Shown one piece after another: positions 3,334-42,094 of a DNA stretch of 64,000 nt. Under the pieces are notes generated by a model. It ran no database searches, was not told the DNA's origin, and worked only from the letters and a program-made list of their open reading frames with translations. The position numbers were made by a program, and so were the translations under genes. Position 1 is the first letter of the stretch; each line of letters begins with the position of its first letter. Source of the stretch: an uncultured Spirochaetota bacterium (GTDB taxonomy: Bacteria; Spirochaetota; Brevinematia; Brevinematales; JAOACQ01); the NCBI GenBank assembly GCA_963783575.1, contig CAWAOD010000014.1, positions 96,001-160,000 of the forward strand. The letters are read 5' to 3'.

Positions 3334-5171
3334 TTAAGTGTCTAATAGATTATCATTTTTTAAAGGAAAGCGAATAACAAATTTTGTTTCCTTTTCTGGG
3401 GTGCTAACGAAAAACATAATACCATTATGTTCTTTTACTATTTGTTGGCAAATTGAAAGTCCTAGACCTGTATTTTTTTTATTAATTTTAGTACTAAAGA
3501 ATGGTTTAAATATTTTTTCCTTTATATCATCCGGTATTCCATAACCATTATCAATAACAAAAATCTCGAAAAACTCTAATTGAGAGTTCTGAGAGATGAT
3601 TATTTTTATCAAACCACCATCTAAAACAGCTTCTATACTATTCGTGATTAAATTTAAAAAAAGCTGTTTAATCCTGTTTTCATCCCCAATAATTTCTGCG
3701 GTTTTAATTTGAAAGTTCTTTTTTAGATTTATTTTCTTTAATGTAAAATTATGATTTAACAGAATAATCACTTCTTCCATTATTTTCACAAGATCAATTT
3801 TGTTTTCAGGAATTTCTTTCATCCGTGAAAATGATAAAAGATTTCCGATGATCTCAACGATCCTGCCTAGTTCTTTTTCAATCTTTAACAATTTTTCCTC
3901 TTCCTTTTTACCAGTAATCTTGCTTTTAAGCAGGATAATGTAATTTTGTATAATGAATAGCGGATTATTGATTTCATGAGCAACACCTACAGCCACCTCC
4001 GCAATAGAAGCCATTTTTTCAGACTGTAAAATATAATTATTAAGGTATCTTGAGATTGAAATATCTTGTATTATCATCACAGAACCTGAGAAGGCATTAT
4101 CATTATCACTTAGTGGAAACACTTCTATTTTCAATATTTTATTTTCACCAAAATGGATATCATCCCAACAATATTTTTCACGTTCCATTATTTTATTTTT
4201 TATTGTTTCCTTAAAACTGATATTAAATTCATCTATAATTTCATTGACGGTTTTATTATTCAAATTGCTTTGTTTTAATTCAAGAATCTCATGTGTCGCA
4301 TAATTTGCTAATTGGATTATATTTTGAGTATCGAAAATAATTACTCCCATTGGAAGATGTTGAATTATATTCTCTATGGACTTTATTATTAGATAAAACT
4401 GGGTGTTCCTTTGCTTTATTTCTTCCTGATTCAATATATATGAATATGTCAATTCAATAAGTCTGTAGTTGTCAAGATCCTTTACATATTCAGTTCCGCG
4501 CCGATAACCGTCTTTTAAAATTGTAACCCTGTCTCCAAGATCCCGTATTTCATCCATATTATGAGTGATATAGATAATACTTTTTCCTGTTTTTTTATAG
4601 TCAAATATAATCTGATAAATTCGTTTCATCTCATCGGGAGTCAGCTTGCTGGAAATCTCATCCAGTATTAGAATACTGGGATTCATAAATAAGACACGAA
4701 CGACTTCTATTATATATTGCTGACGTCCTGGTAATTTATAAAGAGGGATCTTTAGATTAATATTCAGATTAAACTGCTCAATATATTCTTTGCATTTTTT
4801 TAACATTTGATTTCTATGTAAAAAACCAAGAGGATTATTGATTAATTGACCGATAAAAATGTTTTCAACAGAATTTAACTCGGGAATGATGTTTAAATCC
4901 TGATACATCATTCCAATTCCATGTTTTTGAGATGATTTGGGTGTAAAATAATTTATTTGTTTTCCATTTAAAATTATTTCACCCTCTTTTTTTTTATAGC
5001 TCCGCTTAATAATTTTACTAAAGTGGTCTTACCGGCTCTATGCTCGCCGACAAGAGCATGGATTTCTCCCTGATATAAATCAAAATCGACACCTTTCAAA
5101 GCTTTTATATCATTATAAGACACATGTATATTTTTCATATGTAAAATGGGGTTTTGATTTTCGTAGTTCAT
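3334..5171 (-). CDS. ABC-ATPase (sugar-type NBD)-PAS-histidine kinase fusion, ~612 aa, frameshifted in an A9 run (4987-4995)
   Basis: Walker A GEHRAGKT, Q-loop MYQDL, Walker B ILILDE, switch YITH; PAS-like LPMGVIIFD; H-box AHEINNPL; N/G/F boxes NLITNS, DNGYGI, FKPFFSTK, GLGLSI. One extra A joins ORFs 4974..5171 and 3334..4911. Confidence 0.85.
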
Positions 5172-6481
5172 TTTATTTGTAATTTCCTCATTTTGTTATA
5201 AAGGGTTTTTCTATTTATATTAAGAAGTTTTGCTGCTTCATTTTTTATACCGTCAGTTTTTTTCAATGCATCCAGAATAATTTCCTTAGTGAAATTTTCA
5301 TAAGATTCAGATAGGTTTTTTTGCTTTGTATTTGTGATTACAGTTTTATATTGATCCGGTAAATTCTCAAAATCGATTATGTCACTAGAACAGAAAATAA
5401 CAGCCCTCTCCTCAAAATTCTGAAGTTCTCTAATATTTCCAGGCCAGCTGTAACTAAGAAGCAACAACTCAACTTTTTCCGATATCTTTTTTACACTTTT
5501 TGAATATACTTTATTGAAATGATTGATGAAATAATTAGTTAGAGGAATAATATCATCACTTCTGTCTCTTAAAGGAGGCAAATTAAGGGTAATAACAGAA
5601 AGCCTGTAATAAAGGTCCTCTCTAAATAAACCCTTTGCAACAATATCCTGGAGGTTTTTGTTAGTTGCCGAAATAATCCTGAAGTCAGCTTTTATTATTT
5701 CCGAACCTCCAAGCCGGGTAAACTGCTTTTCTTGTAAAATACGCAGCATTTTTGCCTGAGTACTTACACTCATATCGCCTATTTCATCTAGAAAAATTGT
5801 CCCATTTCCGGCAAGCTCAAATTTCCCTTTTTTTTGTGTTTTTGCGTCAGTAAATGCTCCTTTTTCATATCCAAATATCTCGCTTTCAAGCAAATTGTCC
5901 GGAATAGCCGCACAGTTGATCTTAATATATGGTAAGTTCTTTCTATTACTGTAATTATGAAGGATATCCGAAATCAATTCTTTGCCTGTCCCGCTTTCAC
6001 CGCTAATAATAACGGAAGCATTTGTTGGGGCAGCCTTTTTTGAAAGTTCCAGAAGAGATATCATATTGGTATTTTGTGTAATCAATTCGTTGTTGTTTAT
6101 TACATCGTGTTTTAAACTCAAAGAAATCGATAAATTCTTTATTTCTTCCAGAAGCTTTGGAATTTTAATAGGTTTTGTGTAAAGATTTAAAGCGCCATAT
6201 TTAATCGATACTACAGCTTCTTCAACCGTGGCATAACCGGAAATTACAATGATTGGTATTGATTTGATCTCACCCTTTATTATTTTTAAAAGTTCGATCC
6301 CGCTAATGTTCGGCATTTTGATATCGATGATGACCAAATCGATCTTATTATTTTTTATGATATCTATAGCATTAAGAGGATTTGTATCATAAAGTGTTGT
6401 AAAACCTTCTGAATTTAATATTTCAGACAATGACAAGCAAACTTCTAATTCGTCATCTAATATTAATATTGTAAATTCCAT
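5168..6481 (-). CDS. NtrC/AtoC-family sigma-54-dependent response regulator
   Basis: Receiver DD..DIKMP, AAA+ [22 protein letters not shown]-terminal Fis-type HTH; its stop overlaps the kinase start (ATGA). Confidence 0.95.
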
Positions 6482-6548
6482 GATTTATATTCTAATAAAT
6501 AAATTTCTGGATGTCAAGGGAACCAAATTTTATAGATCCTTTGTTAAT

Positions 6549-6601
6549 TTGGGTAATATTAACCCCAAAATTTAATTTACAATGGGGCGAAAGTTGCACA
6601 A
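6549..6601. promoter_or_regulatory. Putative upstream activator sites for the sigma-54 regulator
   Basis: Imperfect palindrome TGGGTAATATTAACCCCA and related TGGGGCGAAAGTTGCACA ~110-160 bp upstream of the -24/-12 element. Confidence 0.4.
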
Positions 6602-6707
6602 ATATCAATATTATAAAAATTATTATTGGCATTGTTTTATTTATTTAAATTAATATTTTCTTAATTGATAATGAATTGTAAGTTAAAGTAAAAATTATTT
6701 TTAAATA

Positions 6708-6723
6708 TGGTATAAACTTTGCA
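6708..6723 (+). promoter_or_regulatory. sigma-54 -24/-12 promoter of the ABC operon
   Basis: TGGTATAAACTTTGCA, exact GG-N10-GC spacing. Confidence 0.75.
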
Positions 6724-6847
6724 AACTACTATAGTTATGTTTTTAATTAGAATTATTTACAAATAAATTATAAAATTTATTTTTGATGATAATAAAATAA
6801 CTTTTTAGTTTGTTTTGTTAGCGACTATAAAAATAGGAGGATTTTAA

Positions 6848-7879
6848 ATGACGCGGGATAATGAAACACCAATTATAAGAAAAAGTGGATTTAGTTTATT
6901 AAGTGGAATAATTGCAAGCCCATGGGGAGCAGCATTATTTGCTCTTGTTTTGGTTTTAGCATTAGGTATGGTTTTTAATGCTGATGGTGCTTTTTTCAAA
7001 ATTGGCACACATAGGGATAGTTTAAGACAAGCTTCAGTCTATGGTATTCTTGCTATTGGAATGACGATGGTTATCATTAGCGGTGGTATTGACCTATCGG
7101 TTGGGAGTGTCCTGGGCGCAACCGCTGTTTTGTTTTCTTTGATGAGTATACATTGGGGATGGAATCCAGTAATTTCAATTATACTTTGTTTATTATTTGG
7201 ATCAGCTATCGGTGCAATATCAGGTTCTTTAGTCGCTTTTTTTAAAGTTCAGCCGTTTATTGCCACACTTGCAATGATGTCTTTTGCGCGGGGAATTGCA
7301 AAAATAATCAGCGGAGGAATAAAAGTTTCTACAGTTGTTCCATTGAGTGATGGAACTTTTCGTCAGGCTGATGTTCCTCAGATTTTTAGAATGATTGATT
7401 CAAGAGTATTTGGTGGCAATTTAACAGTCGTGAGTCTTATATTTTTATTCTGTTTAATAATATTTTTTGTGATTTTAAGTTATCACCGCTGGGGAAGACA
7501 GCTTTTTGCTATTGGAGGAAATGAAGAGGCGGCAAGGCTCTCGGGTGTACCTGTTAGATTTACAAAATTAATTGCTTATGTTTCTGGGGGGCTTTTAAGC
7601 GCTGTAGCGGGATTATGCCAGGCAGCTCAGGAACAGCAAGGTGATCCGGAGGCTGGAACGACTTATGAATTGATGGCAATAGCAATGGTAGTTATTGGCG
7701 GTACAAGCTTAATGGGGGGACGGGGGGGGTTAGTTTTAACATTGATAGGGGTCCTGGTAATGGGTTATCTTGACAAAATATTAAGTATAAATGCAGTACC
7801 CGAAGCATGGAGATTTATGCTGACAGGAGTTGTAATTATTTTAGCGGTATTAATTCAAGGTAGAAAGCAAAAATATTGA
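6848..7879 (+). CDS. Monosaccharide ABC transporter permease (RbsC family)
   Basis: GGIDLSVGS, GGNEEAARLSG, IAMVVIGGTSLMGG; AGGAGG RBS. Confidence 0.95.
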   Translation: MTRDNETPIIRKSGFSLLSGIIASPWGAALFALVLVLALGMVFNADGAFFKIGTHRDSLRQASVYGILAIGMTMVIISGGIDLSVGSVLGATAVLFSLMSIHWGWNPVISIILCLLFGSAIGAISGSLVAFFKVQPFIATLAMMSFARGIAKIISGGIKVSTVVPLSDGTFRQADVPQIFRMIDSRVFGGNLTVVSLIFLFCLIIFFVILSYHRWGRQLFAIGGNEEAARLSGVPVRFTKLIAYVSGGLLSAVAGLCQAAQEQQGDPEAGTTYELMAIAMVVIGGTSLMGGRGGLVLTLIGVLVMGYLDKILSINAVPEAWRFMLTGVVIILAVLIQGRKQKY

Positions 7880-8025
7880 TTAGATATAAAAAATATAAAT
7901 ATTTTGTTAGGGTTAAATATTAAAAATAGAAAAATAATGTAAGGTTTAATAGTTTAATGGGTTGATATTAAGATCGAAGGAGGGTGTTAATATCAAAGAT
8001 AGGAGAATATATATTAGGAGGAAGC

Positions 8026-8976
8026 ATGAAAAGAGTTTTAAGTATGATTAGGTTGATTGTTGTTGTTAGCTTTGCATTGTTGTTTTCAGCGAGTTTATTT
8101 GGGGCTACAGCTGCTAAAAAGAGTACTTATATTATCGGAATGAGTCAGTGCAATTTAGGTGAACCGTGGCGTGTTCAAATGAATGCAGATGTTAGAAATG
8201 AAGCAGCTAAGTATAAAAACATTAAGGTAATTTATAAGGATGCGCAAAATGATTCATTAAAACAAAGAGCGCATGTTGAAGAATTTATCAGCTCAAAAGT
8301 TGATTTGCTTATTATCAGTCCTAAAGAAGCACAGCCTCTTACTGATCCTGTTGCTAAATGTATCGATGCTGGTATTCCAGTTATCGTTCTTGACCGGGCG
8401 GTTATAGGTGATAAATATACCCAGTTTATTGGCGCTGATAATGTTAAGATCGGTACAGCTCTTGGAAAATGGGTTGTATCAAAATTAGGCGGAAAGAAAG
8501 CGAAAGTTGTGGAATTAGAGGGATTGATGACTTCTACTCCCGGACAGGACAGGCATACCGGGTTTATGAATGCGATCCAAGGTTCTGATATTAACATTAT
8601 TTTTGCCGCGGATTGTGCATGGCTAGAGCCAAATGCGACAAAAGAAATGGAATCAGCTCTTTCCCGCTTTAATCATATTGACCTCGTATACGGTCATAAT
8701 GATCCGTCTGCTCATGGCGCTTATTTAGCGGCTAAAGCTGCCGGCCGTGAAAAAGAGATGATGTTTGTTGGTATTGATTCTCTTCCGCAAGAAGGTGTTG
8801 CATATGTAAAGAGTGGGATTCTTGATGCGACATTCCAATATCCTACAGGTGGTAATATTGCGATTCAGCAGGCATTGAAGATTTTTAATGGCGAACAGGT
8901 AGAAAAGAAAATTGTATTAGGTTCTAGAATGTTTACAAAAGAAAATGTTGCAAGCGGCGGCGAAGCTATAGAATAA
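8026..8976 (+). CDS. Monosaccharide ABC substrate-binding protein (RbsB-like)
   Basis: Signal peptide, GIPVIVLDR, IGADN, GHND, VGID; ATG 8026 follows AGGAGG. Confidence 0.92.
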   Translation: MKRVLSMIRLIVVVSFALLFSASLFGATAAKKSTYIIGMSQCNLGEPWRVQMNADVRNEAAKYKNIKVIYKDAQNDSLKQRAHVEEFISSKVDLLIISPKEAQPLTDPVAKCIDAGIPVIVLDRAVIGDKYTQFIGADNVKIGTALGKWVVSKLGGKKAKVVELEGLMTSTPGQDRHTGFMNAIQGSDINIIFAADCAWLEPNATKEMESALSRFNHIDLVYGHNDPSAHGAYLAAKAAGREKEMMFVGIDSLPQEGVAYVKSGILDATFQYPTGGNIAIQQALKIFNGEQVEKKIVLGSRMFTKENVASGGEAIE

Positions 8977-9025
8977 AGACGTTTGCTCATAAATATCCTT
9001 TAAGATTCCTCCTTCGATTAACAAT

Positions 9026-9053
9026 AACACCCCGGATTGCCCCCGGGGTGTTT
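9026..9053 (+). terminator. GC-rich hairpin after the binding-protein gene (terminator or mRNA stabiliser)
   Basis: AACACCCCGG-loop-CCGGGGTGTT followed by a short T tail. Confidence 0.65.
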
Positions 9054-9339
9054 AAAATAAAGAATATACATTAGATGCTAATATATTATAATAAATGAAA
9101 TAGTAAGTTTTTTCAAGTTTTAAAGAAGTATTAAAGTATATAAGGTTAAAATGTATTTTTTATGAGGCAAGTTTATATTAAGTTATATAATAATTTTTCT
9201 AATGATGAGCATAATAAGCATATTTTCATGTTTTTATAATGGAATTAAGAAATAATTGAGGAATGTTGAAAGTGTATAGAATAAAAATGATTATAAAAAG
9301 AAATTATACTTTATAAGATTCAACATAAGGAGGTTGAAA

Positions 9340-10858
9340 ATGGAGACAGATAAAATTAAAAGTAAAATATTTGAAATTAAGGGATTAAGTAAAAGTTATC
9401 CGGGTGTTTTAGCATTGGACGATGTAAATATATCTTTATATGCCAATGAAATAGTTGCTTTGGTTGGGGAGAACGGGGCTGGGAAATCGACTATGGTTAA
9501 GGTTATTTCCGGAGCCATAAAACAGGATAAGGGAAAAATGTTTATTGAGGATGATATATATGAAATAAATAATCCTATTGATGCAATTAATAAGGGTATT
9601 AGCGTGATTTATCAAGAATTTAACCTGGTGCCCAATTTATCTGTTTCAGAAAATATATTTCTTGGCAGGGAACTGCAAAATTATTTGGGTTTTGTTGATT
9701 ATAAAAAAATGAGAAAAAAAGCTGAAGAACTAATAAAAATTATGGATGTAGCTATTGATGTTAAAAGTTTAGTTGGGTATTTAAGCGTTGCCCAGCAGCA
9801 AATTGTTGAAATAGCTAAAGCATTATCTGTAGACAGTAAAATAATCATTATGGATGAGCCGTCGGCAACCCTCACTCTGGAAGAAATTAGTAATCTTTTT
9901 AGAATTGTAAAGGATTTAAAAAAAGCTGGAAAGACTATTGTCTATATTACTCATCGATTGGAAGAGATATTTGAAATTGCGGACAGAGTAATTGTTTTAA
10001 GGGATGGCAAATTAATTGGTATAAATAAAGCGTCTGACGTTACAAAGCGGAGTTTGATAAAAGATATGGTCGGTAAAGAAATAGAACAGGAATTCCCAAG
10101 AGAATATTTTAATAAAGGAGATACGGTCTTGAGAGTGGAGGATTTTGCATTAGCCGGACTATTTGAGGGCATTAATTTTGAATTAAAGAAGGGAGAAATC
10201 TTCGGTATTTCAGGACTTGTTGGGGCCGGGAAAACAGAATTTGCAAAAGCTATATTCGGTGCTTTTGGTTCTAAGGTAAAAGGTAAAGTGTTATTAAACG
10301 GTAAAGCATTTAGAATAAAAAGTCCATATACTTCTATTAGACAGGGTCTTGGATTGGTTGTTGAAGACAGGAAAAATGAAGGTTTGGTGATGACAATGAG
10401 CATAAAAAATAATATAACTCTAACCAATTTAAAAAAAATATCTAACGGGTTCTTTATTAGTAATAAAAAAGAAGATGCTGAAGTTAATAAATTTGTTAAA
10501 AGTGTTAGAATAAAGGTGTATGATATTAATAGAGGAGTAAAAGAATTAAGTGGAGGCAACCAGCAGAAGGTATGTTTAAGTAAATGGTTATATTCAGATG
10601 TAAAAATTATGATATTTGATGAACCCACAAGGGGCATTGATGTTGGGGCTAAACATTGAGATTTATCTGTTATTAAATGAACTGGTTAAAAACGGTATTG
10701 GAGTTATTATCATAAGTTCAGAATTAGAAGAAATAATAGGTTTATGTGATAGAGTTATGGTATTATATGAAAGAAAAATGAATAAGATAATTGATAGAAA
10801 TGATAAAAATAGTTTTATCAAAGAAGAGATTATGAGATTGGCGACTGGTGGGCATTAG
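9340..10858 (+). CDS. Sugar ABC ATP-binding protein (RbsA family, two NBDs), frameshifted at ~10656
   Basis: GENGAGKST, MDEPS, GLVGAGKTE, LSGGNQQKV, DEPTRGIDVGAK; removing one T at 10656/7 joins the 10616..10858 frame (ISSELEE). Confidence 0.93.
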
Positions 10859-15105: not shown

Positions 15106-16923
15106 ATGTCTAAAGCCATTGGTTTCGGTAAGGTTCAACCGGTAAACAGGTTGAATGGTTCAATGCCCAGGATAGGAATCAGACCGGTTATTGACGGGCG
15201 CAGAAAAGGTGTGAGAGAATCACTGGAAAAACAAACTCTTTATATGGCTAAAAGAGTAGCAAAAGTACTGGAAGAGGAATTAAGACATTCAAACGGTCTA
15301 CCTGTGGAATGTGTGATTACGGATATTATAGGCGGGGGAGCAGAAGCAGCTAGGGCAGCGGAACTATTCGCAAGAGAGAGAGTTGGTGTATCTATTTCAG
15401 TTACTCCCTGCTGGTGTTATGGAACTGAAACGATCGACATGGATCCTTTCCTGCCGAAAGCAATATGGGGCTTTAACGGTACTGAAAGACCCGGCGCAGT
15501 TTATCTGGCTGCGGCTTTAGCCGGCCATGACCAGAAAGGGCTTCCGGCTTTCGGAATATATGGGAGAGATGTACAGGATGCCGGAGACAATAAAATACCG
15601 GACGATGTAAAAGAAAAATTGCTGAAATTCACTAAAGCGGCGCTGGCTGTTGCTACAATCCGGGGCAAATCCTATCTTTCCATGGGAAGCGTGTCCATGG
15701 GGATTACCGGTTCGACGGTGAACCCGGATTTTTTCCAGGATTATCTTGGAATGCGTAACGAATATATCGATATGTCGGAATTCATCCGCAGGATTGATGA
15801 AGGAATTTTTGATAAAGAGGAATTTGAAAAAGCAATACAATGGGTCAAAAAATACTGCAAGGAAGGCAAAGATTTAAATCCAAAAGAAATCCAAACATCA
15901 AGAAAGAAAAAGGACCAGGATTGGGAAACGGTTGTAAAAATGAGTATGATCGCCAGGGACTTGATGACAGGGAATAAAAAATTAGCTGAACTCGGGTTCG
16001 GTGAAGAAGCTGAAGGGCATAATGCCATAATTTCCGGTTTCCAGGGTCAGCGTCAATGGACAGACCATTTTCCGAATGGCGATTTTATGGAGGCTATTCT
16101 CAATTCGTCATTCGATTGGAACGGAATAAGGGAGCCTTATCTTATTGCGACTGAAAATGATAGTCTTAATGGAATCGCAATGCTGTTCGGACACTTAATC
16201 TCAAAGTCTGCATCGATTTTTGCAGATGTAAGGACTTTCTGGAGCCCTGAATCGGTAAAAAGGGTCACCGGTAAGGCTTTAACCGGAAAAGCTGCAAATG
16301 GATTAATCCATTTGATTAATTCCGGCTCCGCGGCACTCGATGGAACGGGTGAACAGAAAGAAAACGGGAAATCCGTGATGAAGCCATTCTGGCATATCTC
16401 TCCCGATGAGGCAGAAAAATGCCTGAATGCTACAACCTGGATGCCTGCAGATGTCGGTTACTTCAGAGGTGGTGGTTTTTCATCCTGCTTTATCACAAAA
16501 TCAGAAATGCCCGTCACTATGATTCGAGTAAATTTAATCAAAGGTCTTGGCCCTGTATTTCAGATCGCTGAAGGCTATACAATTAATTTACCCAATGATA
16601 TTCATAGTATTTTGGATAAAAGAACCAATCCAACCTGGCCTACAACTTGGTTTGCACCAAATTTAACCGGAACGGGAGCTTTTAAAGACGTTTATTCCGT
16701 TATGAATTCCTGGGGAGCGAACCATGGAGCCATTAATTTTGGACATGTCGGCGGGGAATTGATAGCACTTGCTTCAATGCTTCGAATCCCTGTTTCCATG
16801 CATAATGTTCCCGAAGAAAATATTTTCCGTCCAAAAGCCTGGATGGCATTTGGAACAGCAGATCTGGAAAGCGCCGATTTCAGGTCCTGTAAGAATTTTG
16901 GGCCTCTGTACGGCCTTAAATAA
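15106..16923 (+). CDS. fucI: L-fucose/D-arabinose isomerase
   Basis: [52 protein letters not shown]; 605 aa. Confidence 0.97.
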
Positions 16924-26463: not shown

Positions 26464-28171
26464 CCCAAACTGAGCGATTTTTTAATAAATACCAAAAACA
26501 GGTTTATAAAAGCCAAAATTTATAAAAATTTGGATATATTTTTTTGTCACCGGTTAATTTGCCGAATTTATGCGTTTGAAAGCACTAAAATCATCAATCT
26601 CTGAGATATTTTCAATTTTTGGCGCAATACCCCCTTATTAATCCATGAAAACAGAGCGCATCTTTAAATCGGGGTAACCGTTCCGCATTTCTCCCACAAA
26701 TCTAACAATTTAAACCTGTCAACTACTTCTTCCCTGAATTTTAAAATAGCCCGCCCGCCTGTTTTAACAATCTTTCCCGCAATATCAATAAATATTCGCC
26801 TGACCGTATCCGGATAACTTTCCACTGGTATTTCCGGTATATCCATATCCGCCTGATAAGCCGACAGCAGATTATACGCTATTATCGATAAAAAATAATA
26901 TACACCGTTTGATACAAAACTCTTAAACGGCAGTGTTTCATCCACGAATTCTTTTATTCCACGGTTCACCAGTTCATCTTTTGCCCTCAGATGATAGAGC
27001 CTCACTATTTCCTCTGCCGTCATATATTTCACAAGCCCCTTTTCTTTCAATACTTCCGCTTCTTCAAGATTTGTATAAATAATATTTTCAGGCCTGTCGA
27101 ACGCTAATCTGAAAACCCCGTCTTCACATTCATATTTGGTATAAATGGCACGGTATCCCTTTTCCCAGCTATCCCGTCTGTCCCGAAAGTCCAGGTATTC
27201 AATTACATCTCCTTTTTTCTCAAACCTTCTCCATTCTTCCGGCAATCGCTTCATCAAATCGAGTTTGATTGAATCCAGTATTCTCCCGCCGCATATAAAG
27301 AACAGTTTCAGGTCTTCCAGCTTCTTAAAATACTTTTGGTCAAAAAACCCGCTATCAGACACAACGATAATCGGCACCTCTTTGTCATAGCATTTCCGGA
27401 TTTCCTTCACTGTTTCTTCCAGCATTGTAAACAGATCGTCACCGTGATTCGGGGATTCGCTTCCTTCGTGGAACGCCAGGTTCACGATAAAACCATTCCA
27501 ATACATATGCAGCGGATGATACCCGTTAACCTTTTTGTAGGTATAAGTCACGCCGTTTCGCTTTTTAGCGTCATCATTATTCAGTACCATCGTATCAAGT
27601 CCGAGAATAATAACTTTCGGGTTCTTTATCTTGAGACGCCAGACAAAAAGCTTAATTAGAATCTTTTGAAGCTCTTTAAACATTGTCTTTTTTACCACTG
27701 AAAAAATCTCTTTATCACATGGGATGAGCACATATTGTCTTTGCTGCATTCAATGGCCTTTCTGTGCCCGATATCATTTGCCAATTCATCAAACCGGGTC
27801 ATGGTAAATTTGCTTCCATCTATGAAAAACAGCATCAATTGAGAAATAATTTTTTCTATATCTTTACCTTTGCGGCTCTTGCGAATTCCCTGAAATACTT
27901 CGCTGATCAGGGGAATAACTTTAATATTCTTGAGATATCTCAGGACAAACGTAAGCCCGCCGCGGCTGGTAAGACAATCTTTCGTTATGCCGATTTTTTG
28001 AATCTCATTTCCCTGAATTTTGCGATTTTTATTTTTTTCAGTCATAATTTACCTGCTTTTGCACCCAATGGGTGTTATTCCGGGGTAAGGATGGCTGTAA
28101 CCATTTCCTTACCCCATTTTATTTTGGCATGGTTTTATTTTTATGGATAGTTAAGAATCGCTCAGTTTAGG
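26464..28171 (-). mobile_element. IS1380-family insertion sequence (1708 bp)
   Basis: Inverted repeats CC(C/T)AAACTGAGCGATT; 5-bp target duplication TATGT (26459-26463, 28172-28176). Confidence 0.88.
26664..28045 (-). CDS. IS1380-family DDE transposase, frameshifted in a T6 run (27701-27706)
   Basis: LTSRGGL, GLDT, GYHPL, SDSGFF, YHLRAKDE; adding one T joins the two ORFs. Confidence 0.85.
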
Positions 28172-28470: not shown

Positions 28471-29736
28471 ATGGAAAATCTAAAAACAAAATATACCTTT
28501 CAATACGGCATTTTATTTCCAGTGGTTTTCATTCTCGGATACATCTTCAGTTTTATTCAATACCAGTCAATCAGGAACAGCCTTATCGACCCGTATAATT
28601 CTATCATTGATTACAGAGTCCTGATGGGCATTTCCATAGTAAATATCTTTTTTCTGATTCTGTTTTACAAAAAGACCATAAATGTCCTCTTCCTTACAAT
28701 ACAATTGATTTTACTTCTGTTTATAATTACACTGTCAAACAACAATCTGGCAATAACGGTCATACTTTCCTCTGTCTTTCTTTTTTCATCCGGATATTAT
28801 CTTAAAAAACCAGGTAATTTATTTTTTACTGTTTTCGCAAGTTTTTCCATACTTTGTTTCCAGCAGTCCATTAACATTGATAATATTCAGACTCCGACAA
28901 TCAATGCCCGGGAATTTATCATGCTGTTATTTCTGTTTATTTTAATTCTTATCCTCAATTATATTATTTCTTCAATAATAGAATCATATGAGTCGCTCAC
29001 TGAAGTAATAGAAAAACAGAAAAATACAATAATTAATTTAATAGAAACCAATGTCGGCATCCAGAAATACGCTCTGAATAAAAAGGAAGAATTTGAAAAT
29101 GCGGAAAGGTTGAGGATAACACGCGATATTCATGATACCATCGGCTATGTTCTCACGAATAATATTATGCTTATCAGAGCCTGTTCTTATTATGTTCCCA
29201 GGAGATTAAAAAAAGCCCAGACTTTTTTAAGCGACGCTCTGACAAACGCTCAGAACGGACTCAATGAGACAAGAAGCATATTAAGAAAACTCCATAGTTT
29301 CAACAGGATAAAGGGAATCGAGGAGATCGTTAAAATAATCAAGCTCTTTAAGGAATCAACAGGCATTGAAGTTAATTATAATTTCGGTAATACAAAAGGA
29401 ACCTGGGGAAGTCAGTTGGATTATGTTTTTTTCCGGATAATACAGGAAGGGCTGGTGAATTCGGTCAAACATGGCAGGGCCACCAGAATATCCGTTTCGT
29501 TCTGGCAGACTGATAAGGAAATTTTATTAAGCATTTCCGATAACGGCAGAGAGCTCCAGGATGGCGAAATTAAAAAGGGAATCGGATTACAGGGTATGGA
29601 AGAAAGGCTTTCCCGTTTTAACGGAAAACTTGATGCTCAAAGTTACCCTCTCGGTTTTACTTTAAATATTTCGGTGCCTTTGGAATCTATAGAAAAAGAG
29701 GAGATAAATGAAATTAATCAAGCTGATGTTTGTTGA
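28471..29736 (+). CDS. Membrane sensor histidine kinase (HisKA_3)
   Basis: ERLRITRDIHDTIG, QEGLVNSVKHG, GIGLQGMEER. Confidence 0.93.
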   Translation: MENLKTKYTFQYGILFPVVFILGYIFSFIQYQSIRNSLIDPYNSIIDYRVLMGISIVNIFFLILFYKKTINVLFLTIQLILLLFIITLSNNNLAITVILSSVFLFSSGYYLKKPGNLFFTVFASFSILCFQQSINIDNIQTPTINAREFIMLLFLFILILILNYIISSIIESYESLTEVIEKQKNTIINLIETNVGIQKYALNKKEEFENAERLRITRDIHDTIGYVLTNNIMLIRACSYYVPRRLKKAQTFLSDALTNAQNGLNETRSILRKLHSFNRIKGIEEIVKIIKLFKESTGIEVNYNFGNTKGTWGSQLDYVFFRIIQEGLVNSVKHGRATRISVSFWQTDKEILLSISDNGRELQDGEIKKGIGLQGMEERLSRFNGKLDAQSYPLGFTLNISVPLESIEKEEINEINQADVC

Positions 29737-30361
29737 TGATCAGAAAATATTCATCGAAAGCCTAACCCAGATCTTGAAAAAAATCGCGAAGTTCATCAGG
29801 GTCACATCGTTTGCCTTCAACGGCAAAGAAGCGGTTGAAGCTGTGGAAAAAGATATTCCAGATATGATAATTATGGACATCCGCATGCCAGTAATGAATG
29901 GAGTGGATGCTGTAAAATTGATCCATCAGAAACATCCGGACATCAAAATTATCATGCTGACCACCTATGATGATGATGAATATGTAAAAGATGCGTTAAA
30001 ATATGGGGCCAGCGGCTACTTATTGAAGGATATACCAATAGAAGACCTGGTAACACAGATAAAAATTGTCTGTACCGGTAAGGTCGCGCCTATTTCCCGG
30101 AGCGTTCTGGAAAAACTGACGCATAATATCTCAGAAACAGATACCGCAGAAGCCCCTTCCTGGCTTGATGAACTGAATAAAACCGAAAAGAAAATATTAA
30201 AACTCATAGCTGAAGGAATGGATAATAATGAAATTACGGAAAGGATTTTTCTGGCCGAACAAACTGTCAGAAACTATATCCATAAAATATATGAAAAAAC
30301 CGGTGTCCAGAACCGGACCCAGGCTCTCAAAACAGGCCGGAAATATATCAGTTTCCTTTAA
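29708..30361 (+). CDS. NarL/LuxR-family response regulator
   Basis: VDDQ, MDIRMP, GYLLKD, LuxR HTH. Confidence 0.95.
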   Translation: MKLIKLMFVDDQKIFIESLTQILKKIAKFIRVTSFAFNGKEAVEAVEKDIPDMIIMDIRMPVMNGVDAVKLIHQKHPDIKIIMLTTYDDDEYVKDALKYGASGYLLKDIPIEDLVTQIKIVCTGKVAPISRSVLEKLTHNISETDTAEAPSWLDELNKTEKKILKLIAEGMDNNEITERIFLAEQTVRNYIHKIYEKTGVQNRTQALKTGRKYISFL

Positions 30362-30363
30362 AC

Positions 30364-30385
30364 AGGGGGCTTAAGCCCTTTTTTC
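30364..30385 (+). terminator. Intrinsic terminator
   Basis: GGGCTTAAGCCC hairpin followed by a T tract. Confidence 0.6.
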
Positions 30386-30401
30386 TATGAGATGTTTTCA
30401 T

Positions 30402-30420
30402 GGTACAAATTCGGTACAAA
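30402..30420 (+). promoter_or_regulatory. Direct repeats, putative response-regulator sites
   Basis: GGTACAAA twice at 11-bp period upstream of the ABC operon. Confidence 0.45.
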
Positions 30421-30565
30421 ATAAGTATTTTTAATCCTATTCAAAACCGGAAATAAAAACTACAATTTATCTGACTTTTTCAAATGCTTAATGAACTAAT
30501 TCATCAAATGGGAAAAGATTCGGAATAAAATTGTAGACTGAAATTTCTCAATAAAGGAGGAAAAC

Positions 30566-31909
30566 ATGAAGAGATTTTTGTTGGTTCTGGTTTCGGCTTT
30601 CCTGGTTTTTTTTACCGCTTCAGTTCTTACTGCTGATAATGTAAAGCTGACTTTTGTTTACTGGGGAAGCCCTAACGAGGATATTGCTATGAAAGACGCT
30701 TTCAAGGCGTTTGAAGCTGCAAATCCTGGGATTACGGTCGAACCGATGTATATCCAGGGCGATATTTCCGGTACCGAATACGCGGCTAAACTAAGGGCTA
30801 TGGCTCAGGCTGGGACCCTGCCCGATCTCGGGTATTTCAGGCCGGATCAGTTCGGCGAGTTTGCCGCGGCTGGTTATATGATGGATCTGACATCAATGGT
30901 TGAAACTGAAAACCTTAAAAAGGATTATCTCCCTCAGGTATGGCTGAAAGTGAATAATAAGATTTATGGTGCTTATACCGCTGCGGAATGCCAGGTAATG
31001 TTTTACAATAAGGATGTCCTGAAAAAAGCCGACGTTCCTATACCACCGGCTGATTATGCAAAGGGATGGAAATGGGACCAGTTTGTTAAATATCTTAGAA
31101 TGGTCACAACCGATGCTAACGGCAAACATCCAGATGACAAGGGATTTGACTCAAAGAGGATTTCAACATACGGCGTCAGCTACCAGCTCTGGCATGCAAT
31201 GCTTACGCCGCCTTTGTGGAGCGGCGGTGGCGCAATCGTTTCAGCCGACGGGAAGCATTTCCTGATGGATTCCCCGGAATCGGTAGATGTAATACAGAAA
31301 ATCGCAGACCTGATTAACAAAGAAAAAGTAATGCCTTATACAAGCCCTTCTTCGACATCGCAGGCAGGGCTTCCCGCACCCCCGGTAATGCTGGCAAATG
31401 GTCAGCTGGGTTTTTATATTACCGGACAGTGGGAACTTCTTGATATCGCGAAAATGAATTTTCCGATGGGTATCGGAGCACTGCCGATAATTAAGAAACC
31501 TGCTCAGATGTATATCAGCGGAGCTTCAGTTATTTTTAAAGCTACAAAACATCCTAAGGAAGCCTGGCTTTTGCATAAATGGATGATGACCCCGGATAAG
31601 ACTTTAAACCTATACACAAGCGGTTTATGGATGCCTACAAAAGCTTCCTGGTATAAAGATCCTGCCGATCTTAAAAAATGGACAGACAATAATGTTCATC
31701 CCGCGGAATTCAAGACGGCAGTCCTGGATTCCATGAATGTCGCCGATCCGATTCCCGAAGTTGTTGTTAAAAATTATCCCCAGATAATTAACGAATGTGT
31801 AAGCCCGCAGCTTGATAAAGTATGGCTGGGCGAAATTTCCGCTAAAGAAGCGCTGAAAACAGCAGGCGACCTGGTCAGAAAGCAGAATTTAATGCAGGGT
31901 ACCTGGTAA
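30566..31909 (+). CDS. Carbohydrate ABC substrate-binding protein (CUT1)
   Basis: Signal peptide, FEAANPGITV, MFYNKDVL, WKWDQF, TKHPKEAW. Confidence 0.92.
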   Translation: MKRFLLVLVSAFLVFFTASVLTADNVKLTFVYWGSPNEDIAMKDAFKAFEAANPGITVEPMYIQGDISGTEYAAKLRAMAQAGTLPDLGYFRPDQFGEFAAAGYMMDLTSMVETENLKKDYLPQVWLKVNNKIYGAYTAAECQVMFYNKDVLKKADVPIPPADYAKGWKWDQFVKYLRMVTTDANGKHPDDKGFDSKRISTYGVSYQLWHAMLTPPLWSGGGAIVSADGKHFLMDSPESVDVIQKIADLINKEKVMPYTSPSSTSQAGLPAPPVMLANGQLGFYITGQWELLDIAKMNFPMGIGALPIIKKPAQMYISGASVIFKATKHPKEAWLLHKWMMTPDKTLNLYTSGLWMPTKASWYKDPADLKKWTDNNVHPAEFKTAVLDSMNVADPIPEVVVKNYPQIINECVSPQLDKVWLGEISAKEALKTAGDLVRKQNLMQGTW

Positions 31910-31933
31910 AAATACAAAATAATTAATATTAAA

Positions 31934-31965
31934 ATACTGAAACGTGTTAAAACACGTTTCAGTAT
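31934..31965 (+). terminator. Intercistronic perfect hairpin
   Basis: ATACTGAAACGTGTT-AA-AACACGTTTCAGTAT. Confidence 0.6.
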
Positions 31966-31987
31966 CGAATTTATTCAGGAGTTTTTA

Positions 31988-32929
31988 ATGAATGAAAACG
32001 GTTCTAAACAGAAAAATATAATTATTATAAAAAAAAATAGCGGATTTTTGTCCCGTTACAACAATTTTTGGGGGTGGCTTTTCCTGACGCCTGTTGTGCT
32101 GGGTCTTTCGCTATGGGTGGCTTTCCCGCTGGGATTAAGCTTATTTACAAGTTTTACAAAGTGGGACCTGATTACCAAACCGGTTTTTATCGGGTTCAGA
32201 AATTATGTCGATATGTTTACCAGCGATCCGCTTTTCGGACAGTCGGTTTTCGTAACGCTGTATTTTACCATTGCAGGCGTCTCGTTACAGATTATACTGG
32301 CTTTTGCCGCCGCGCTGCTGCTGAATACAAAAGTTAAGGGCATGAATTATTTCCGGACGATGTTTTATATGCCATCACTTGTCCCGGTAATCGTTTCTTC
32401 CGCTCTCTGGATGTGGCTGTATAATCCTCAGTTCGGACTCTTCAATATTTTGTTAACTTCTCTTGGTTTTTCTCCGCTTAAATGGGTTTACGGTATAGGT
32501 TCTGTAATACCCAGTCTGATCTTGATGAGTGTCTGGGGAATTGGAAATATCATTATCATTTTTCTTGCGGGTCTGCAGGACATATCGAAAGAGTTGATTG
32601 AGGCCGTGGAAATTGACGGTGGAAACCTATGGCACAGGTTCAGGCACATTATTCTGCCCTTGATGACGCCGACAATCCTTTACAATATAGTGATCGGTAT
32701 CATCAATGGCTTCCAGACATTCACACAGCCCTATATAATGACGAATGGAGGTCCCGCGAACGCCTCTCTTTTTTATGTTCTGCATCTTTACAAGCAGGCG
32801 TTCCTTTATTCAAAAATGGGCTATGCCAGCGCGATGGCCTGGTTTGTATTTATTATGACAGGTATAATTTCGATCATTATCTTTAAAACATCCTCGGGAT
32901 GGGTATTTTATCAAGGAGACGGCAAATAA
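31988..32929 (+). CDS. Carbohydrate ABC permease (MalF/UgpA-like)
   Basis: FIGFRNY, EAA loop ELIEAVEIDGG, TNGGP, MGYASA. Confidence 0.94.
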   Translation: MNENGSKQKNIIIIKKNSGFLSRYNNFWGWLFLTPVVLGLSLWVAFPLGLSLFTSFTKWDLITKPVFIGFRNYVDMFTSDPLFGQSVFVTLYFTIAGVSLQIILAFAAALLLNTKVKGMNYFRTMFYMPSLVPVIVSSALWMWLYNPQFGLFNILLTSLGFSPLKWVYGIGSVIPSLILMSVWGIGNIIIIFLAGLQDISKELIEAVEIDGGNLWHRFRHIILPLMTPTILYNIVIGIINGFQTFTQPYIMTNGGPANASLFYVLHLYKQAFLYSKMGYASAMAWFVFIMTGIISIIIFKTSSGWVFYQGDGK

Positions 32930-33774
32930 TGAAAAGGAAAAATAAAAACAAATCCTATTTTACCATTATGGTTTATTTTTTTCTGGTCATTTTTTCCCTT
33001 TTCTGCGTTTTTCCTTTAATCTGGCTGATCAGGAGCTCATTAATGAATTCGCGGGAAATTTTTACCCTTCCTCCGTTATTATTTCCCGCGGTTCCGAGCT
33101 GGAACAACTATCTCGATTTGTTTAAAGTTGTTCCATTTGTACGGTATTTTTTCAATACAGTTCTTATTGTTTTAATTAATGTAGCGGGCGCTCTGATGAG
33201 CAACACCATTATAGCTTACGCGTTCGCCAGAATCAGGTTCAAAGGCAGAACTATTATGTACGGGTTATGTATCGCAACACTGATGCTACCGCAAACAGTT
33301 ACCATGATCCCACTTTATATTGAATGGACAATATTCCATGGGATAAACACATACGCGCCGTTAACTGTTATGTCATTTTTCGGAAACGCCTTTTACATAT
33401 TCATGCTTCATCAGTTTTTCAAAACCATCTCGATCGAATACGATGAAGCGGCTTTTGTGGACGGCGCAAACCACTTCCAGGTACTCACAAGCGTAATAGT
33501 CCCGATGTCAAAACCGGCTTTAGCTGTAGTAGTGATCTTTACTTTTATGTCTTCATGGAACGATTTTATGGGGCCTTTCCTTTATATAAGCGACCAGAGT
33601 AAATACACCCTTTCTCTCGGCTTGAAATACTTGATATCGGGCTACTCGGTAATCGGACAATGGCAGGTTTTGATGGCGGCCTCTGTCCTGATTGTATTGC
33701 CGGTAGCGCTTTTGTTCTTCTTTATGCAGCGTTATTTTATAGAAGGTCTGACAATGGGCGGTTTGAAGGGATAA
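32929..33774 (+). CDS. Carbohydrate ABC permease (MalG/UgpE-like)
   Basis: EAAFVDGA, SWNDFMGP, QRYFIEGL..GGLKG; ATG overlaps the upstream TAA. Confidence 0.94.
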   Translation: MKRKNKNKSYFTIMVYFFLVIFSLFCVFPLIWLIRSSLMNSREIFTLPPLLFPAVPSWNNYLDLFKVVPFVRYFFNTVLIVLINVAGALMSNTIIAYAFARIRFKGRTIMYGLCIATLMLPQTVTMIPLYIEWTIFHGINTYAPLTVMSFFGNAFYIFMLHQFFKTISIEYDEAAFVDGANHFQVLTSVIVPMSKPALAVVVIFTFMSSWNDFMGPFLYISDQSKYTLSLGLKYLISGYSVIGQWQVLMAASVLIVLPVALLFFFMQRYFIEGLTMGGLKG

Positions 33775-33796
33775 TTAAAATAAATTGGAGATTCTT

Positions 33797-35743
33797 ATGG
33801 GTCAAGATACACAGGAAATAAACCTTAAAGATATTAAAATTAAGGATGATTTCTGGACAAAATACCAGGTTCTGGTTTATAAAAATGTAATCCCTTATCA
33901 GTGGGATGTTATCAACGATAGAATTCCCAATATTGAACCAAGCCATGCGGTTAAAAACTTCAAAATCGCGGCTAAACTTGAAAAGGGAGAATTCTACGGC
34001 TTTGTTTTTCAGGATTCAGACCTTGCAAAATGGCTTGAAACATTTAGTTACAGTCTGATGATACATCCGGATCCTCTGATGGAAAATAATGCCGATGAGG
34101 TAATTGACATAATCGAAAAAGCCCAGCAGCCAGACGGTTATCTCAACACATATTTCACCATCAGGGAGCCGGGTAAACGGTTTACCAATATGCATGAAGC
34201 ACATGAGCTATACTGCGCCGGCCATTTTATTGAAGCGGCAGTCGCTTATTATAATGCGACAGGCAAGAGAAAACTGCTGGAAATAATGTGCCGTTATGCT
34301 GATTTAATTGATCGGACGTTCGGTCCTGAACCTGGAAAATTGAAAGCATATTGCGGCCATCCGGAAATAGAGCTTGCGCTGGTTAAACTATACCAGACTA
34401 CCGGCGAGGAAAAGTATTTGAAACTCAGTAAATATTTTATCGATGAAAGAGGCAGGGAGCCTTATTATTTCGATCTGGAATTTAAAAAGAGGGGAGGAAC
34501 CTATATACTTCCTGAATTCCGCGGTTTCGACCGGAAATATCTCCAGGCACATCTTCCGGTAAGAAAGCAGACTACTGCTGAAGGCCATGCCGTCCGCGTA
34601 ACATATCTGTTTTCCGCTGCCACAGACATCGCCCGCCTCACATGGGACCTGGAACTTAAGGAAGTATGCGGAAAAATCTGGAATAATATAACTTTAAGAA
34701 GGATGTATATTACCGGAGGTATTGGTTCAGCATCTTACGGAGAAGCATTTACCTGTGATTATGACCTTCCCAATGATACTATGTATACCGAAACCTGCGC
34801 GTCTGTCGGGATGGTCTTATTTGCTTACCGGATGCTTAAGCTGGAAGCAGACAGGCATTATTCGGATATAATGGAACTACAGCTTTATAATAATGTATTA
34901 AGCGGAATTTCATTAGACGGTACACGATATTTTTATGTAAATCCACTGGAAATATGGCCAGAAAGGTGTGAAAAAAACCCCGGCTTAAAACATGTCAAGC
35001 CTGTCAGGCAGCCCTGGTATGCCTGCTCCTGTTGTCCTCCCAATGTATCAAGACTTATTGCTTCCCTCGGAATGTATATTTATACAATTATGGAAAATCA
35101 AGTTAATATTCATCTTTATATCGGAAGTGAAGCCGGGCTGAATATCGGTGGAAATTCTGTAAAAATCACACAGAAAACCTCGTATCCGAATGAAGGGATT
35201 GTTCAGATTAAGATCGGTACGGAAAAAACTCAGTCTTTCTCAATAAATTTAAGGATTCCGGGATGGTGCAAAGAATTTTCCTGTATAATAAACGGTGAAA
35301 GTCAAACAGACCGGAAACAGGAAAAAGGTTACCTGAAAATTGACAGAGTTTGGTCTGACGGTGATATGGTGGAGCTAAACCTGAAAATGCCTGTAACTTT
35401 AATCTATTCTCATCCAAAAGTCAGAAGTACCGCTGGAAAAGCAGTAATTCAGCGGGGGCCTGTTATTTATTGTCTGGAAGAAGCGGACAATGGCCCGGAC
35501 CTTCAAAATATCAGCCTTGCAGATAATCCTGACTGGAAAACTGAATTTAAACCTGACCTACTGGGAGGAATTGTAATTGTCAAAGGCAGTGCTTTCCGCT
35601 CCGAGGAAAGCCAGTGGGACAACTCAACTCTTTATGGACCTATAGAAATTGATAAAAAATCGGTCGAAATAACGGCTATTCCTTACAGCCTTTGGTGCAA
35701 CCGTAAGCCGGGAGAAATGATAGTCTGGATTAAGAAATGTTAA
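33797..35743 (+). CDS. GH127 beta-L-arabinofuranosidase-like glycoside hydrolase
   Basis: FQDSDLAKWLE, HELYCAGH, GHAVR, GEAF, YTETCAS, CSCCPPN. Confidence 0.95.
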   Translation: MGQDTQEINLKDIKIKDDFWTKYQVLVYKNVIPYQWDVINDRIPNIEPSHAVKNFKIAAKLEKGEFYGFVFQDSDLAKWLETFSYSLMIHPDPLMENNADEVIDIIEKAQQPDGYLNTYFTIREPGKRFTNMHEAHELYCAGHFIEAAVAYYNATGKRKLLEIMCRYADLIDRTFGPEPGKLKAYCGHPEIELALVKLYQTTGEEKYLKLSKYFIDERGREPYYFDLEFKKRGGTYILPEFRGFDRKYLQAHLPVRKQTTAEGHAVRVTYLFSAATDIARLTWDLELKEVCGKIWNNITLRRMYITGGIGSASYGEAFTCDYDLPNDTMYTETCASVGMVLFAYRMLKLEADRHYSDIMELQLYNNVLSGISLDGTRYFYVNPLEIWPERCEKNPGLKHVKPVRQPWYACSCCPPNVSRLIASLGMYIYTIMENQVNIHLYIGSEAGLNIGGNSVKITQKTSYPNEGIVQIKIGTEKTQSFSINLRIPGWCKEFSCIINGESQTDRKQEKGYLKIDRVWSDGDMVELNLKMPVTLIYSHPKVRSTAGKAVIQRGPVIYCLEEADNGPDLQNISLADNPDWKTEFKPDLLGGIVIVKGSAFRSEESQWDNSTLYGPIEIDKKSVEITAIPYSLWCNRKPGEMIVWIKKC

Positions 35744-40796: not shown

Positions 40797-42094
40797 ATGG
40801 CAGGAATAGTGAAAAATATTATGTATCAGGACATAAAAAAACTGAAACTTTTGGGGAAAAGTAAAAATGGTGTATCCCGGGAACTGTCAATAGATATTAA
40901 GACAGTCCGAAAATATTGGGCTATGAACGATTCCGAATACCAGAAAAGCCTGATGGAATTCTCTTTCCGTGAAAAAGAATTCGAAGGAATAAAAACAGAC
41001 ATATTGAAAGTATATGAAAAGAATGATTACATCCGGCTAAATATGTCTGCTTTGTATGACTATTTATTGGAGGTAAAAGGCAAACTACCGGCGAATGAAA
41101 ATACGATGAGGAATTTCGTACATTACCTGATTGAAAGCGGGCAGCTTACCTTGAATGAAAAGCGACGGTATTACACAAAAGTGCCGGACATGCCATATGG
41201 AAAGCAGCTCCAGCTTGATTTCGGTCAATATACCGACAGATATGGCAGAAGGTATTACATATTTGCCGCGGTGTTATCCGCCAGTCGTTTTAAGTATGCG
41301 GCCCTCCAGGAGAGGCCATTCCGGACAGAAGACCTTATCAATCATCTATTGGACTGTTTCGCATATATGAGCGGGATACCGCAGGAACTTGTCATCGATC
41401 AGGACTGCACGATGGTTGTGAGTGAGAACTCCGGCGATATCATCTACACGAAAGACTTTCAGTATTTCAAAGATGAAAGATCGGTGCAAGGGAAGCTCGC
41501 AGTGTGAGTGACAAATGCCGGATCGCTGTGGACACAAGCCAGTATGATATACCTGAAAAATACAGGAACGGTTCGGTTGACATTTACAAAACTGACAGCC
41601 TGCTTTTTGTCTTTGACAGGATTACGGGTGAGCAAATCGCTGAATATCGGCTTTCGGTGATTCCGGGGCAGATTATAACCAACAGGGCAATGATCCGTGA
41701 AATGGGAAAGACAGTGAAGTTATTGAAAGAAGAAGTAAGCGGGTACTTTGATATTCCAGGCTGGAAGGATTTTCTTGAATGTAATTTCAGGAAGTTCAAT
41801 CGTTATGTAAGGGACCAGTGTCTTTCCGGAAGAAAATACTTCAGGGACAAGATAATTGATACAGATAAGCTGACACAAGCGATCTCAAACTGTCTGGATA
41901 ATGATAGTTACTCAATGAAGGATTTATGGGATAATTACCGGAACTGTCTGAAAATAGAACATTTAGAAATACCTATGAATGTAGAAAAGATAGTCAGGCC
42001 ACTTATGAATCCTGAACACTATCTGGAAGTAGCCAAATCAGACATCGGGAAATACCAGAGACTCTGTAGTTCCATTGGGGGCCGGCAATGTTGA
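40797..42094 (+). pseudogene. istA: IS21 transposase IstA with internal deletion/frameshift near 41480-41505
   Basis: HTH, QLQLDFG and ELVIDQ present; no KGKVE-type third catalytic segment; two ORFs. Confidence 0.8.

Follow-up and report, generated by a model that had tools for sequence, protein, structure and literature searches.

The fusion kinase and the operons around it

The window considered here is a stretch of 64,000 nucleotides from an uncultured Spirochaetota bacterium (contig CAWAOD010000014.1, positions 96,001 to 160,000), and its element of interest is a gene at 5171-3334 on the minus strand that codes for an ATP-binding cassette (ABC) nucleotide-binding domain (NBD) joined to a PAS, HisKA and HATPase kinase. 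The gene belongs to an activator-kinase operon (minus strand, 6481-3334), and divergent from it is an operon for permease, binding protein and ATPase of a CUT2-type sugar importer (6848-10858). A sequence-only reading of the locus had proposed an RbsA-type NBD followed by PAS, HisKA and HATPase domains in a protein with no membrane helix, and Pfam, translation and hydropathy all agree with it. By Pfam and translation the main open frame (3334..5028, minus strand) holds the C-terminal two thirds of the NBD, with Q-loop, signature, Walker B, D-loop and switch His, then a linker helix, PAS, HisKA and HATPase_c. From stop to stop (5028-3337) it is 564 amino acids long, and Pfam finds the four domains in it without interruption: ABC_tran at residues 5-125 (E 4.4e-11), PAS at 219-323, HisKA at 348-404 and HATPase_c at 448-557. 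The N-terminal 61 codons (4989..5171, minus strand), beginning with the ATG at 5171 and including the Walker A sequence GEHRAGKT, are in another frame (Pfam ABC_tran E 7.5e-8), and the frame changes within a run of nine A (T on the plus strand) at 4987-4995. Because ABC_tran to HATPase_c share one uninterrupted frame, the fusion of NBD and kinase is independent of this break, as had been claimed. The motifs in translation are MYQD (Q-loop), LPGRQQ (signature), ILDE (Walker B), ISSKLT (D-loop), ITHN (switch) and HEINNPL (H-box). Hydropathy averaged over 19 residues peaks at only 1.47, and so the kinase has no membrane helix. The HisKA and HATPase_c matches are above the Pfam cut-off and the H, N, G1 and G2 patterns of class I histidine kinases are present in P0001.

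The ATG of the kinase gene overlaps the stop codon of the activator gene (ATGA, 5171-5168), the translational coupling that had been proposed. The activator (5168..6481, minus strand) is of the NtrC/AtoC type, with receiver, AAA+ and Fis helix-turn-helix domains (Response_reg, Sigma54_activat and HTH_8), and its best NCBIfam model is AtoC, below the cut-off (410 vs 714). Its GAFTGA-type loop reads GAFTDA, as do those of 57 of the 82 activators of the loci collected, and rpoN is present in the genome. Just upstream of the activator-kinase operon the sigma-70-like site TTGACA-17-TAGAAT (6489..6517, minus strand; 11 of 12), a consensus match only, is the best of 53 such matches in the region. Facing the importer operon, TGGTATAAACTTTGCA (6708..6723, plus strand) is a sigma-54 -24/-12 site, for which the consensus is given as TGGCAC-N-TTGCT (PMC12316311). 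It scores 8/8 at the scored positions, a value equalled by 0 of 1000 shuffles, and the divergent permease, binding protein and ATPase operon with such a promoter is thus as first read. An inverted-repeat search of 6482-6847 for the binding site of the activator yielded only A+T-rich chance pairs.

Of 41 cases in the family where activator and importer genes diverge, 39 have a sigma-54 score of at least 6/8 on the strand of the importer and 0 have one on the opposite strand, with 3.4 expected from base shuffles; only exact duplicates were removed from this count, near-duplicate loci being kept. With -24/-12 sites facing the importer in 39/41 and rpoN present, the importer operon is very probably the target of the activator. 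That the activator drives it from a sigma-54 promoter is well supported at the level of promoter sequence, consensus being the one form in which control of its own transporter is seen here.

The permease gene (6848..7879, plus strand; RbsC-like, BPD_transp_2) has an intact EAA loop, GGNEEAARLSG. Its neighbor at 8026..8976 (plus strand) encodes a sugar-binding protein of RbsB fold (Peripla_BP_4), for which the closest solved chain, far ahead of any transport binding protein, is the 'sensor protein' 2x7x (E 4.5e-67), which we take to be Bacteroides BT1754. The periplasmic domain of BT1754 binds fructose (PMC3404733). In BT1754 this domain is part of a membrane hybrid kinase, whereas the binding protein of the window is a free transporter subunit, and fructose as the sugar of this importer is only a first guess from the overall match. 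Binding proteins 68-69% identical to that of the window are found at two loci, L100 and L128, each adjoining its own fusion kinase. Between binding protein and ATPase there is an A+T-rich gap of about 360 bases (8977-9333) holding a G+C-rich hairpin of 11 pairs (9026..9052); it could lower expression of the ATPase relative to permease and binding protein, freeing permease for the kinase. The two-domain, RbsA-like CUT2 ATPase (9334..10858, plus strand; two ABC_tran stretches) had been called complete, a description that fails since its frame changes near 10650.

Spread and origin of the fusion family

The NBD-PAS region is matched by 352 of 4365 candidates, and a profile search of 50%-identity representatives gave 134 of full length among the 150 matches listed; confinement of the fusion to this one assembly, which the sequence-only reading had raised as a check on itself, is not what is found. 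An assembly chimera was likewise rejected, there being hundreds of intact relatives. Nearly all of the 120 matches listed from the first search are of about 600 amino acids in a single frame with ABC_tran and HisKA, and those with a named source come from Spirochaetia, Vecturithrix granuli or KSB3. In the 134 representatives the H, N, G1 and G2 boxes are present in 115, 106, 109 and 101 respectively. Two subfamilies can be told apart by Walker A, GEHRAGKS with the window gene and GEHGxGKS with two paralogues from the same genome (C2:14728-16518 and C3:33755-35161). Paralogous activator and NBD-kinase pairs of the GEHGxGKS type at L001:8357-11549 and L002:9750-12528 both face away from a neighboring CUT2 operon that has a sigma-54-like site; L002 has two frame breaks in the HATPase domain of its kinase and one in its ATPase.

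The distribution of the family is patchy. The 40 nearest relatives have no fusion-kinase match at E 1e-60, and at least 12 of 400 other genomes in a sample of the phylum have the family (a lower bound, with 3 candidates per genome scored); a DNA-pattern search found it in 9 of 400 others. When species genomes were scanned from protein to locus with patterns that proved too general, fusions made up only 2 of 79 loci, L004 and L005. Longer fused forms (1067-3045 amino acids) gave none at E 1e-30 among 1757 candidates, which is weak evidence. One 851-residue relative, P0131, with ABC_tran, two HisKA stretches and HATPase_c, is a chimera or a longer variant. Databases automatically label some members as kinase/ABC ATPase, no NCBIfam model covers the fusion of NBD and kinase, and a fold search with a kinase model matched kinase and NBD separately and brought up no solved fusion. 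Full-text searches for such a fusion gave no description of it; subscription journals and supplements lay outside them, and domain-architecture tables in supplements may list it. The family is conserved and apparently uncharacterised, and apparently a new input type for transporter-linked two-component signalling.

The best NCBIfam matches of the kinase NBD are to the first ~240 positions of CUT2 ATPase models, all far below cut-off. In a quick tree of 69 rows a branch (SH-like approximate likelihood ratio test, 99) sets the 35 kinase NBDs sampled apart from the rest, on the side of CUT2 N-halves, and repeated local fusion to the neighboring ATPase was rejected as the kinase NBDs are one clade. 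Identity points the same way, with 0.56 to N-halves vs 0.30 to C-halves over Walker A and 0.40 vs 0.21 over the Q-loop/ENI stretch. The hallmarks of N-half homology are present (Walker A Lys, Q-loop, Walker B DE and switch His), and with the N-halves of RbsA, AraG, MglA, XylG and YtfR the kinase NBD shares an intact Walker A, a degenerate signature and a G-x-YQ...ENIF stretch. The differences are a single NBD followed by a fused PAS-kinase instead of two fused NBDs, the second with LSGGNQ, a Walker A of GEH[RG]xGKS for GENGAGKS, and a D-loop of xxxKL[TS] for PTxxL.

LSGGQ is found in 0 of 26 N-halves of neighboring CUT2 ATPases, and LSGGNQ in 25 of 26 C-halves; since the kinase clade sits with the N-halves, its degenerate signature is inherited. 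The altered signature as an adaptation of the kinase was for the same reason rejected. RbsA is described as having one degenerate site (PMC11466899). Of the motifs that had been singled out as altered, the D-loop stands as family-specific, joined by Walker A position 3/4, and the signature does not. At the third position of Walker A, 95 of 134 kinase NBDs have H, and 26/26 N-halves have N; the D-loop Pro, present in 26/26 N-halves, is not among the five commonest residues at its place in kinase NBDs, and three places further on there is K or R in 102/134. Residues of the ATP site are retained in most representatives (GK[ST] in 129, the Q of the Q-loop in 106, DE in 117 and the switch H in 83). 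In ABC structures generally the changed Walker A and D-loop positions meet across the interface of two NBDs. From these sequence features we infer that kinase NBDs pair through a rebuilt interface, binding nucleotide but hydrolysing it poorly.

P0005, an intact relative modelled with AlphaFold (mean predicted local distance difference test, pLDDT, 81.6; predicted template-modelling score 0.44), shows an NBD fold, then a linker that is flexible and a helix, and after these the folds of PAS, DHp and CA, with their relative placement uncertain.

The proposed input and its rivals

The kinase appears to have neither an outside sensor nor a spare binding protein, and its input would be the NBD co-opted from the N-half of a CUT2 ATPase. 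On slightly better than even chances, the activator and kinase are a dedicated two-component system for one CUT2 importer, with the kinase NBD docking on the permease and reporting the state of the transporter. The kinase dimer would set its NBDs against the EAA coupling helices in the permease, and binding protein, permease and kinase would together make a receptor from transporter parts. Movement of the NBD would be relayed by a conserved C-terminal helix (LTYSF) and a coiled coil to PAS and DHp, and the activator, once phosphorylated by the kinase, would turn on the importer operon from its sigma-54 promoter. As the cis ATP residues are kept, a canonical signature is lacking and the D-loop/Walker A interface is rebuilt, the NBD probably binds ATP and moves between open and closed states that do not drive transport. 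Loading with sugar may either activate the kinase or relieve it of an inhibition. A more detailed version is possible at somewhat under even chances: the kinase dimer would dock two N-half NBDs on the permease dimer in replacement of the transport ATPase, a sugar-loaded binding protein would drive their closure and so switch the kinase, and the NBD would be a portable 'permease-reading' module found also on AraC regulators of the same genome.

The neighborhood of the family is consistent with such a dedicated system. The Walker A pattern gave 80 metagenome loci and with L005 there are 81, of which 79 have a kinase frame; in 74 of these 79 the activator is directly upstream. A CUT2 gene lies within 1.5 kb in 24/24 loci with at least 1.5 kb on both flanks, and all three importer parts are present in 12/12 loci with 3 kb flanks; at six loci with one flank long and the other cut, no CUT2 gene was seen. 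Of 14 genome loci, 12 adjoin a CUT2 operon, and the linkage of homologs to RbsC/RbsB-type genes on which the sequence-only reading had staked its case is thereby borne out. In this genome 3/3 fusion kinases are within 8 kb of a CUT2 permease vs 2 of 35 other kinase cores. There is one kinase per importer (three pairs in this genome, and two tandem pairs in each of L005 and L105), which calls for a sugar-specific input, and a spare binding protein is found in only 3 of 41 complete loci.

Docking itself was approached by co-variation and by complex prediction. For co-variation, loci were taken that had a single kinase and a single permease together with an activator, and thinning at 80% identity brought their number from 35 to 27; a set of 19 omits L004, five loci of the second subfamily and two loci without a full binding protein, and 21 loci were used for a scan of segments. 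In the 19 loci, similarity of the permease is tracked by the kinase NBD (r 0.37, p 0.004) and by its 24-residue Q-loop stretch (0.43), the values for PAS, kinase core and activator being 0.02, 0.20 and 0.03; for the true ATPase they are 0.73 (N-half) and 0.30 (Q-loop). Complex prediction with two copies of the L135 permease and the L135 kinase NBD gave 0.56 vs 0.09 for the best control, graded weak, with runs agreeing in at least 95% of contacts and partner pLDDT at least 78. The mark used admits 116 of 157 solved pairs and 2 of 215 mismatched ones; among the pairs admitted, only 18 solved ones and both mismatches score 0.60 or below. No CUT2 permease was found among solved chains by sequence search. 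The proposal of docking thus gained a weak structural prediction and a mixed record in co-variation, the latter offering mild support.

A different protein of the same genome bears on what a co-opted NBD can do. ABC_tran is joined to an AraC helix-turn-helix in a protein (G000:C2:29365-30429, minus strand, equivalent to L182:5365-6429) encoded directly upstream of a CUT2 operon for binding protein, ATPase and permease, and it has four relatives at 51-58% identity. In 5 of 5 members GK[ST], DE and the switch H are gone but [ED]NIF and the post-signature helix remain. Being ATP-dead yet kept, it indicates that a co-opted CUT2 NBD can persist without ATP chemistry, and the retention of an N-half in this regulator points to a role in protein contact, though in a different protein.

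Several observations weigh against docking on the permease. The importer's own ATPase is present in 41/41 complete loci (34 two-domain, 5 single-domain and 2 partial), and as every complete locus keeps it, competition for the permease is to be expected. The kinase NBD as sole motor of the importer was rejected on this same count, the two loci that have no ATPase stopping at a contig edge. Constant presence of the ATPase also suits a mixed complex, in which the kinase NBD would join the working transporter, paired with its ATPase (the C-half, where this has two domains), and read flux, as BceS and PhoR do via other contacts. An NBD of the N-half type, with Walker A intact and signature degenerate, would suit a partner that has LSGGQ; single-domain ATPases occur at five loci, and NBD similarity also tracks the ATPase N-half (r 0.29). 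However, both halves of the ATPase are already partners within a single chain at 34 of 41 loci, and the Walker A/D-loop changes at the NBD-NBD interface fit a new homodimer as well, so that such piggy-backing is judged distinctly improbable.

A second set of contrary observations comes from L178 and L180, of the second subfamily, which adjoin sugar-catabolic genes and have no CUT2 gene within ~8 kb; their genomes hold PF02653 permeases elsewhere. The fusion-kinase systems there (L178:7722-14399 and L180:7662-16130) are beside SIS/PIG-L/phosphofructokinase or LacI-araBDA genes. Neighborhoods of this kind, with no transporter, would be natural if sensing were cytoplasmic, with PAS or an NBD pocket as the binding site for a metabolite or the sugar once imported, and with an NBD that makes no permease contact but serves to gauge ATP/ADP or as a scaffold for dimerisation. 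Ligand pockets are often variable, and PAS is the most variable part of the protein (mean identity 32%, compared with 54% for the NBD and 51% for the kinase core); the strong retention of ATP-binding residues fits as well. Yet similarity of PAS follows neither the binding protein (r 0.12; partial -0.01) nor the permease, whereas that of the NBD does, and PAS domains are often only 18-30% identical where binding proteins are 64-77% identical. Moreover an energy gauge needs no paralogue per importer, and the ATP-dead AraC fusions show the domain to be useful without nucleotide. Cytoplasmic sensing is accordingly seen as unlikely, if less so than a mixed complex.

The tests of docking on the permease have contrary results of their own. 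With 22 loci the NBD-permease correlation is 0.22 (p 0.066), and with 27, the second subfamily included, 0.09 (p 0.23); related loci are not independent, so the p values overstate the significance. In a ranking of 73 segments the Q-loop comes third, with a partial r of 0.41 (family-wise p 0.017), and is surpassed by a segment at the H-box (0.52), which should not touch the permease. In its Q-loop the window kinase is only 54-58% identical to L100 and L128, whose permeases are the closest to its own (62-63%), and 79% identical to L135 and L088. The Q-loop/ENI stretch may be kept for stability of the fold alone. As to the complex prediction, it was made with proteins of a relative and its controls had no paralogous NBD, so any CUT2 NBD might pass, and general likeness of NBD-permease pairs could yield the result.

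Also to be set against docking are the frame breaks, which affect 2 of 3 fusion kinases and 2 neighboring ATPases in this assembly, above the genome-wide rate of 7 in 89 genes tested (9 genes were flagged, and 2 that are adjacent paralogues were removed). Those in the window kinase and ATPase may be sequencing error or gene decay alike, and if the break in the kinase is real this copy may be non-functional. Such breaks, and a helical insert of the NBD that is poorly conserved, would be in keeping with the NBD as a structural relic or localisation tag in an ordinary AtoS/AtoC-like pair with its input elsewhere, the window genes perhaps decaying. But the NBD is conserved like the kinase core, its family motifs are near-invariant, length is constant over 134 deep representatives, and activator, permease, binding protein and promoter are intact in the window. 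A relic is the least probable of these explanations, and a very unlikely one.

Known systems and the surrounding region

In the BceAB-BceS/BceR and PstSCAB-PhoU-PhoR/PhoB systems a kinase with no outside sensor of its own relies on an ABC transporter for its signal and governs the genes of that transporter (PMC6978683). The likeness of the fusion kinase to these is in a cue taken, as proposed, from an ABC transporter and in an output to the genes of its own transporter. Bce and Pst kinases, however, are separate, membrane-anchored proteins that contact the intact transporter (PhoR through PhoU and PstB), whereas the fusion kinase is soluble, has no hydrophobic segment and carries an NBD within its own chain; its output is by sigma-54 and the substrate is a CUT2 sugar. 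Peripla_BP_4 proteins report sugar to kinases controlling sugar ABC operons in XylFII-LytS/YesN and ChvE-VirA (PMC8050422). The fusion kinase would have a purpose like that of XylFII-LytS. The kinases in those cases have membrane helices and an outside domain touched by the binding protein, and the fusion kinase has neither, nor, with a spare binding protein as rare as noted above, a dedicated one.

With AtoS/AtoC, ZraS/ZraR and Thermotoga ThkA/TrrA the fusion kinase shares its PAS-HisKA-HATPase core and an NtrC-type partner, and differs in having an NBD as input domain. AtoS is its best NCBIfam model, below cut-off (205 vs 646) and matching only from model position ~262, and the best solved chain for the kinase core is 3a0r. 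A further precedent is MalK-MalT of Escherichia coli, in which an ABC NBD conveys the state of the transporter to a transcription regulator, the working ATPase sequestering a separate activator; there is no second NBD there and no phosphorylation.

With their separate parts, Bce and Pst systems make it difficult to trace the coupling of transporter state to a kinase. In the fusion, that link would be a recognisable ABC NBD in the chain of the kinase, and so testable by standard Walker, Q-loop and EAA mutants. Should docking prove true, the NBD would be a new class of kinase input domain, a soluble kinase would be able to sense outside sugar, and phosphorylation would provide a read-out for the structurally unsolved CUT2 importers and possibly a modular biosensor part.

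A fourth sigma-54 system beside a CUT2 operon in this genome (L181:4575-12146) has in translation a sigma-54 activator and a long kinase that includes segments of membrane type, with an additional binding protein ahead of them, and the ATPase of its CUT2 operon is single-domain. It looks like the same regulatory slot filled by a conventional three-component design, as in XylFII-LytS.

The region of the window is sugar-rich, with an L-fucose isomerase-family gene at 15106-16923 and, by eye, at 28471-35743 a sugar ABC operon of CUT1 type and a gene resembling glycosidases, with a membrane kinase/regulator pair ahead of them. Transposase-like frames are seen in translations at 26664-27749, 40797-42837 and 45443-46615, presumably two IS4-like and a split IS21-like istA with istB.

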